From the UHGV virus genome UHGV-0067992: a DNA stretch of 18,713 bases; one strand, written 5' to 3'. The translations under genes were made by a program, and so were the position numbers. A model generated the notes under the pieces. That model saw only the letters and a list, made by a program, of their open reading frames with translations. It was not told where the DNA came from and ran no database searches. Positions 8,861 to 8,935 of this stretch are shown piece after piece. Every line of letters begins with the position of its first letter. The stretch's first letter is position 1. The stretch is from a virus.

Positions 8861-8935
8861 CGGGTCCTCCCGGTGGGGGCCCCTGCCACGGGGCGGGAGC
8901 GTCGCGGAAAAAGGCTAGTTTTTGAAATTTTATTC
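8861..8935. other. Phage cos site (cosN with putative 12-nt cohesive end GGGCGGGAGCGT at 8891-8902, plus start of cosB)
   Basis: Ungapped resemblance to the lambda cos region as I remember it: window CGGGTCCTCCCGGTG...CCACG|GGGCGGGAGCGT|CGCGG... versus lambda CGGGTCCTTTCCGGTG...TTACG|GGGCGGCGACCT|CGCGG...; lies about 175 nt upstream of the terminase small subunit. Confidence 0.6.

Follow-up and report, generated by a model that had tools for sequence, protein, structure and literature searches.

The window, the whole 18,713-nt stretch of viral DNA analyzed here (UHGV virus genome UHGV-0067992), follows the canonical order of lambdoid phages, in which the lysis genes come first, then cos, then the terminase. 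Upstream of cos lie genes for a NanS-p-like esterase, a phage-21-type holin, a lysozyme and an Rz-like DUF2514 protein, together with CspI-like, GnsB and DUF1398 genes. Directly downstream are the genes for the small terminase subunit TerS, a gpA-family large subunit TerL, a lambda-family portal and a ClpP-protease/capsid fusion, as part of a full TerS-TerL-W-portal-protease/capsid-tail module. The TerS, TerL (700 aa, both domains), portal and protease-capsid ORFs are intact. Because the lysis genes precede cos and the terminase genes follow it, the window would span the two virion ends, with the lysis genes at the right end and the terminase at the left. The original prediction had proposed this arrangement, and both the gene order and the ends of related phage records agree with it.

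Several ORFs flanking this region have features of their own. The 652-aa ORF at 672–2630 contains DUF1737, a sialate O-acetylesterase (SASA) domain and DUF6645, and is presumably a NanS-p-type esterase. Esterases of this type are typical of the late region in Stx and related lambdoid prophages. A 330-aa ORF between the holin and lysozyme genes (3564–4556) matches DUF1327 in its first ~100 residues alone, whereas YdfR in a Qin-like relative has ~103 aa. The extra ~700 bp and a stretch with minus-strand ORFs (3564–4556 and 4563–5000) look like an insertion in the lysis cassette. The longest ORF read (13143–15362; 739 aa from the first in-frame TTG) is the fusion of a ClpP-type prohead protease with the major capsid protein, an arrangement described for Gifsy-2 and noted for mEp213-like phages (PMC12315714).

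TerS (164 aa; 9077–9571, plus strand) belongs to Pfam DUF1441 (E = 2.7e-41), not to Nu1, and matches PHROG 141 (E = 7e-74), which is annotated as terminase small subunit. The annotated TerS proteins of phages phi458 and Ayreon have the same sequence (100% identity). BLASTP found no similarity between TerS and lambda Nu1 (E = 20), and a search of the PDB with the TerS sequence gave no match. Profile-profile comparison was performed with 35 cos-adjacent DUF1441 proteins and 25 Nu1-type proteins. The two profiles aligned in hhalign with a probability of 91% and E = 9e-7 over 139 colinear columns that include the N-terminal HTH region. This alignment suggests a remote homology of TerS to lambda Nu1, visible at the profile level alone, and an HTH-like segment at the N-terminus of TerS. 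TerL (700 aa; 9571–11673, plus strand) is a gpA-family protein with the ATPase (GpA_ATPase, E = 3.3e-71) and endonuclease (GpA_nuclease, E = 1.9e-84) domains of Pfam, and shares 25% identity with lambda gpA across 623 aa (E = 3e-18).

The cos sequence occupies 8862–8907 and has the form GGGTCCT-N22-/GGGCGGGAGCGT/CGCGG, with slashes at the predicted nicks. The letters at 8861–8907 are CGGGTCCTCCCGGTGGGGGCCCCTGCCACG/GGGCGGGAGCGT/CGCGG, and the joined ends of the lambda reference (NC_001416) read ...ACGGGTCCTTTCCGGTGATCCGACAGGTTACG/GGGCGGCGACCT/CGCGGG. The heptamer GGGTCCT at 8862–8868 (plus strand) is the packaging-termination signal cosQ and corresponds to lambda bp 48473–48479. The 22-bp quasi-palindromic nicking site cosN, CCACG/GGGCGGGAGCGT/CGCGG, lies at 8886–8907 and was located by its symmetry, the unique motif and the ends of phage records. 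Lambda-type landmarks place the putative nicks at 8890/8891 on the top strand and 8902/8903 on the bottom strand. The 12-nt cohesive-end sequence is at 8891–8902 (plus strand), so that the left end would carry the 5′ overhang 5′-GGGCGGGAGCGT and the right end 5′-ACGCTCCCGCCC. The left half GGGCGG and a CG at both nick sites, 12 bp apart, are features of a lambda-type cosN. Two-fold symmetry extends over 12 of the 22 positions of cosN, including the CG at both nicks, compared with 10 positions in lambda. A single copy of the composite motif GGGTCCT-N19-ACGGGGCGG-N6-CGCGG is present in the window (8862–8907, plus strand), and it was absent from all 200 dinucleotide-preserving shuffles of the window with up to 3 mismatches tolerated. 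A chance match was rejected as the source of the motif on the basis of these shuffles.

The site had been predicted by comparison with the lambda cos region, and alignment to NC_001416 bears out both the lambda sequence used and the lambda-like architecture, with conservation of cosQ, the CG pairs that flank the nicks, and the left half GGGCGG. The alignment had also been described as free of gaps, which does not hold. A 1-nt offset is needed, and cosQ lies 22 nt from the top-strand nick in the window versus 23 nt in lambda. The difference falls in the spacer after cosQ, which reads GGGTCCT-C-CCGGTG in the window and GGGTCCT-TT-CCGGTG in lambda. The overhang was thought to differ from that of lambda throughout positions 7–12; this is correct for positions 7, 8, 9 and 11, whereas position 10 (C) and position 12 (T) are common to both, and 8 of the 12 positions are identical overall. 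The 7-bp cosQ is highly conserved (PMC4669245). GGGTCCT is unchanged in the aligned loci of the window type and of the related class B (defined below), and GGTACTC replaces the heptamer in some relatives.

Two repeats were observed near the site. A short tandem GCTGTCAG repeat lies just 5′ of cosQ (8846–8860) with ~2 units versus 3 in Tritos. A 13-nt inverted repeat (CCCCTGCCACGGG/CCCGTTGCAGGGG, 92% complementary) at 8880–8892 and 9176–9188 pairs the left edge of cosN with a site ~100 nt inside the TerS gene, and is probably a chance occurrence. Feiss et al. (Virology, 2015, volume 482, page 260) are said to have described N15-type phages with a remote accessory R site inside the TerS gene. 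The accessory R site of N15-type phages is mentioned in PMC4669245.

Deposited phage records provide a comparison for the position of the ends. Both the cdtI record (AB285204, deposited in 2007) and the Tritos record (OV696610) have GGGCGGGAGCGT as their first letters and ...CCTGCCACG as their last. Tritos is prophage 3 of strain LF82 and forms plaques (PMC9928086); the LF82/Tritos paper makes no mention of cos. The mEp460_4F5 record (LR595868) starts 5 nt to the left of the predicted nick and is without 3 nt (TCG) of the cosN region; this break and the 3-nt loss are probably an assembly artefact at physical, cohesive ends. The Hafnia phage yong2 record has as its first letters the CGCGG directly after the overhang, and its ends align to the nick sites of the window. 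Cyanophage Cr-LKS3 has 5′ cohesive ends of 9 nt (PMC9303873) and a TerS that is a distant relative, ~40% identical to that of the window. Its GenBank record reads ...GACGCG/GGGCTCGCG/CGCGGAAGTCGGCAGTTTTT, with the same CG-flanked landmarks and the I2 segment, and its deposited ends align to the nick sites of the window. Taken together, these comparisons argue strongly that the virion ends would lie at the window cos.

A real cos could still be cut with a different stagger from the lambda-based prediction, for example with an overhang of 11 or 13 nt or with the nicks shifted by 1 nt. The TerL lineage is just 25% identical to gpA and the cosQ-nick spacing is 22 nt, not 23 nt, both of which would fit such a difference. 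The distance between the ACG and CGCGG landmarks also varies among relatives with a DUF1441 TerS, from 9 nt in Cr-LKS3 (reported ends, PMC9303873) through 10 nt in CP-1639 and 11 nt in VT1-Sakai to 14 nt in Gifsy-2, and the cos sites of yong2 and Chris1 are atypical. This spread may mean that overhang length varies within the DUF1441-TerS terminase lineage or, alternatively, that some prophage cos sites have decayed. Against a shifted cut in the window, the spacing of its CG/.../CG landmarks equals the 12 nt of lambda, its symmetry exceeds that of the lambda site, the deposited ends of Cr-LKS3 coincide with the same landmarks, and the depositors of cdtI and Tritos set their ends at exactly the predicted positions. 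A nick position or overhang length other than the predicted one is highly improbable.

The sequence to the right of cosN was compared with the cosB region of lambda-like phages, in which R3, the principal TerS binding site, is expected ~47 bp from the nick and an optional IHF site lies between cosN and the TerS gene. A conserved segment, CGCGGAAAAAGGCTAGTTTTTGAAATTTTAT, separates cosN from cosB at 8903–8933 (plus strand). It is nearly invariant across the cdtI, PhiR40_1 and mEp213 types although their TerS proteins are just 42–86% identical, and it is still recognizable in Cr-LKS3. Likeness to lambda I2 (PMC4669245) suggests an I2 role for this segment. The next block, TCGTCATCACCACTACT at 8934–8950 (plus strand), is a candidate R3 at cos bp 44–60, compared with bp 50–65 in lambda and bp 48–60 in N15 (PMC9026076). 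Its sequence changes with the TerS type, being CATCACCAC in the window, CATCATCATCAT in the mEp213 type and GGCGGCGGCAGC in the cdtI type. The candidate assignment is drawn from this covariation and from the position.

An inverted-repeat search identified a palindrome with 11-bp arms, ACTACTGTAAT-N8-ATTACAGTGGT, at 8945–8974, which may function as I1. An IHF-like site inside it, TAATTGATTGGTA at 8952–8964, matches YAANNNNTTGATW at 12 of 13 positions. A strict scan for the exact IHF consensus found none in the window; close relatives have an exact match, TAATWGATTGATA, at cos bp 62–74, and the cdtI type has an exact match at bp 64. The palindrome is followed by TTTATTTTTA, with a T-run to 8984, and scores as a weak AT-rich intrinsic-terminator-like hairpin within cosB. 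It is specific to the TerS/cosB type of the window, and its core CTGTAAT...ATTACAG is kept in 8 of 9 window-type sequences aligned. Alignments pointed to two further blocks, a candidate R2-like block ATGGTGTCGAT at 8984–8994 (minus strand), whose (A/G)TGTCGA core recurs at equal distance across most class-B cosB types, and a candidate R1-like block TGTTCATCGCTAACACC at 9008–9024 (plus strand), whose TGTTCA core is conserved across class-B cosB types. Likeness to the R3-I1-R2-R1 layout of lambda hints at these two roles. The R-like repeats of the window have just about half of their positions in common, and repeat finding in the window gave no convincing three-fold R-sequence family; the R2 and R1 assignments are tentative for this reason, and those of R3 and the IHF site are likewise weak.

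These features make it very probable that the locus serves a lambdoid E. coli prophage, whose head and packaging module is of the mEp460/cdtI/Tritos type, as a functional cohesive-end site (cosQ-cosN-I2-cosB). Judged by sequence comparison and homology, the window cos most likely works like lambda cos. Late in growth, TerS would bind cosB just to the right of cosN, with 8934–8950 as the candidate R3 and the IHF-type bend site at ~8952–8964 next to it. Binding would position a dimer of the gpA-family TerL on the quasi-symmetric cosN, where it would nick the top strand at 8890/8891 and the bottom strand at 8902/8903 to leave the 12-nt 5′ overhangs GGGCGGGAGCGT (left) and ACGCTCCCGCCC (right). 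Packaging would then proceed rightward through the terminase, head and tail genes and end at the next cos through cosQ (8862–8868), cosN and I2.

Over 8858–18713, the DNA identity of the window to mEp460, phi458 and Ayreon, all plaque-forming phages, is ~98–99%, and related records match likewise; identity to cdtI and Tritos from 8858 onward is ~96%. The left (lysis/accessory) arm resembles the late regions of Qin and Stx phages, not mEp460. Copies related to window 8700–9100 are present in 2115 of 5426 complete E. coli genomes (~39%). An exact 21-mer around cosN matched 4 loci in a collection with one genome per species, namely E. coli, E. ruysiae and 2 probably mis-binned MAG contigs, and within such a collection the cos 21-mer is essentially confined to Escherichia.

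This abundance bears on whether the site is an inactive relic, left in a defective prophage and no longer used for cutting and packaging. On E. coli chromosomes, the 401-bp region 8700–9100 is matched best (99%) in a Qin-like cryptic prophage with a TerL annotated as truncated and tail genes directly after it, and many of the related cos-region copies in the ~2100 E. coli genomes are likely defective. In the 18.7 kb seen here, however, the TerS, TerL, portal and protease-capsid ORFs are intact, the packaging and head genes are ~98–99% identical (DNA) to those of plaque-forming phages, and the cos equals the Tritos termini on the left flank and over the first 33 bp on the right. Intact morphogenesis genes that barely differ from those of viable phages make a relic decidedly unlikely in this case. 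A functional cos remains the preferred reading of the locus.

Natural variation of the overhang was surveyed by scanning IMG/VR for ACGGGGCGG-N6-CGCGG, which returned at least 120 loci, and right halves were counted where a cosQ (GGGTCCT or GGTACTC) lay upstream. Among the matches listed, the lambda right half CGACCT was found 50 times and GAGCGT, that of the window, was second commonest with 12. CGCGCT (mEp213/LLS) followed with 8, CAGCGG (Fels-1) with 5 and GAGCGG with 4, and more than 12 further right halves were present among these matches. The sites fall into two classes. Class A (lambda, 21 and Gifsy-1) has cosQ followed by 23 nt, a Nu1-type TerS and a right flank that is mostly CGCGG(G/T/A)TTTTCGCTATTTATG, with CGCAGGATTTCACTCCTTATG in Gifsy-1. 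Class B, which includes the window, has cosQ followed by 22 nt, a left flank ending in ...CCTGCCACG, the right flank CGCGGAAAAAGGCTAGTTTTT and a DUF1441-type TerS. The 22-nt spacing was found in all GGGTCCT-bearing class-B (DUF1441-TerS) relatives examined.

The changed overhang had been expected to be informative for terminase specificity. Lambda-like phages are defined by such ends, and differences at bp 7–12 are common (Feiss laboratory; PMC4669245, PMC9026076), with cosQ and the nick-flanking CG pairs conserved (PMC4669245). N15 differs naturally at bp 9 and 12 and Gifsy-1 at bp 8, 9 and 11, and terminases of lambda and N15 specificity show no preference between variants of the cosN right half (bp 7–12) (PMC4669245). 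Packaging specificity resides in the binding of TerS to cosB (PMC4669245; PMC9026076). The overhang and TerS-cosB are also uncoupled in natural sequences. GAGCGT is paired with three TerS/cosB types, those of the window, PhiR40_1 (86% TerS identity) and cdtI/Tritos (42%), and the cosB type of the window is also found with GAGCGG, GAGCAT and CAGCGG overhangs. Published genetics and this uncoupling speak against the expectation. The right half of the overhang appears to be a naturally variable and functionally tolerant part of cosN, not a specificity determinant, and the right half and cosB appear to drift or to be swapped.

Tracking of the TerL lineage by the overhang was also considered. In a small sample, GAGCGT accompanies TerL proteins at least 99% identical to that of the window, the mEp213-like TerL cluster has at least 5 right halves, and lambda-type TerL is paired with CGACCT in some cases and with AAGGCG in others. 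The overhang is not tightly coupled to the TerL lineage, because one TerL type occurs with several right halves, and the idea was rejected.

Hybrid cos sites were observed in three IMG/VR loci (L020, L040 and L132), which join a class-B left flank (...GGTGGCCTGCCACG) to a lambda-type right flank (CGCGGGTTTTCGCTATTTATG), and many phage matches to the window break at ~8858–8891. Because of these hybrids and breaks, cos looks like a mosaic or recombination boundary between genome arms. A further reading is that the variable right half of cosN acts as a lineage barcode, together in some relatives with the length between the conserved nick landmarks (9–14 nt), and limits productive end-joining of chimeric chromosomes where several lambda-like prophages or cos-bearing satellites share one cell. 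This reading is speculative and unlikely. If it were true, GAGCGT would mark a very successful E. coli lineage and cosN would be a preferred recombination joint between genome arms.

One IMG/VR locus, L046 (positions 1–11983; IMGVR_UViG_2574179916_000005), carries three class-B cos sites in the same orientation in a 12-kb span (positions 93, 8228 and 10764), and their cosB types all differ. Its window-type TerL is cut after the ATPase domain by an inserted element that encodes an integrase, a Bro-N protein, an AAA_25 protein and an SSB. After the element come a cos that lacks an obvious TerS, a ClpP-capsid fusion and then a further cos and a DUF1441 TerS. This arrangement may be a capsid-encoding satellite inserted in a prophage terminase gene.

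The same locus bears on whether the window cos could belong to a phage satellite, a PICI-type island that hijacks the lambda-like terminase of a helper, since L046, a related locus, carries an integrase/primase/SSB island that has class-B cos sites and is inserted in a TerL gene. The cosQ and cosN of PICIs are, moreover, nearly identical to those of lambda-like helpers and are followed by the TerS-like rpp gene (PMC9026076). The window cos, by contrast, lies after a phage lysis cassette and before the complete TerS-TerL-W-portal-protease/capsid-tail module, in a gene order colinear with the mEp460 and cdtI phages, and no integrase, primase or rpp-only arrangement was found within the window. 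A PICI cos-rpp locus is an integrase/primase island without morphogenesis genes, which does not describe the window. A PICI cos was rejected on this gene context and is barely credible as an explanation.

A full-text literature search with the 12-mer GGGCGGGAGCGT and its complement gave an unrelated mammalian promoter paper as its sole match. In kind and in sequence, the cos variant is one already known, and it would belong to an ordinary mEp460/cdtI-type lambdoid prophage of E. coli. It carries little weight for discovery, and its chief use is annotation, where it would set both the origin of packaging and the ends of the virion genome for an E. coli prophage class that is very common. The RefSeq label for the DUF1441-type small terminase of this class is still 'DUF1441 family protein'.

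Comparison with known systems places the window among the lambda-like phages and closest to the mEp460/cdtI group. The window and lambda share an identical cosQ (GGGTCCT), CG pairs at both nicks, the left half GGGCGG and the 12-nt stagger predicted for the window, as well as a site between the lysis and terminase genes, a cos-to-TerS start distance of ~190 bp (187 in the window and 191 in lambda), a gpA-family TerL and a lambda-family portal. They differ at overhang bp 7, 8, 9 and 11 and in cosQ, which is 1 nt closer to the nick in the window. The I2 and cosB of lambda have no sequence relation to those of the window (AAAAAGGCTAGTTTTT versus GTTTTCGCTATTTATG), the DUF1441 TerS of the window is without BLASTP similarity to Nu1, and the TerL proteins are just 25% identical. 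In the group of cdtI, Tritos, PhiR40_1 and mEp460, the overhang GGGCGGGAGCGT and its flanks are identical to those of the window, over ~45 nt on the left and 33 nt on the right in Tritos, and the head and tail genes are 95–99% identical. Differences from the window lie in cosB and TerS: cdtI and Tritos have the cosB GGCGGCGGCAGCATG and a TerS just 42% identical to that of the window, and PhiR40_1 has another cosB and a TerS that is 86% identical.

The Salmonella phage Gifsy-1 has the overhang GGGCGGCAGCGT, one base from that of the window (bp 7), with the same cosQ and CG flanks, but its architecture is of the lambda/21 type, with a Nu1-type TerS, 23-nt cosQ spacing and a lambda-like I2. The putative cos of mEp213/LLS, GGGCGGCGCGCT (PMC12315714), is class B like that of the window, with a DUF1441 TerS that is 57% identical, 22-nt cosQ spacing and an I2 of the form GGCTAGTTTTT. 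It differs in the right half CGCGCT, a cosB of the CATCATCATCA type and a cos-to-TerS distance of 118–130 nt, compared with 187 nt in the window. N15 and the PICIs share with the window a conserved cosQ and cosN, variation in the right half (bp 9 and 12 in N15) and a TerS-like DNA-binding protein encoded just downstream. N15 differs in having a single R3 and no IHF site, and in the PICIs rpp replaces the full terminase and head module, whereas the window has a complete phage morphogenesis module.
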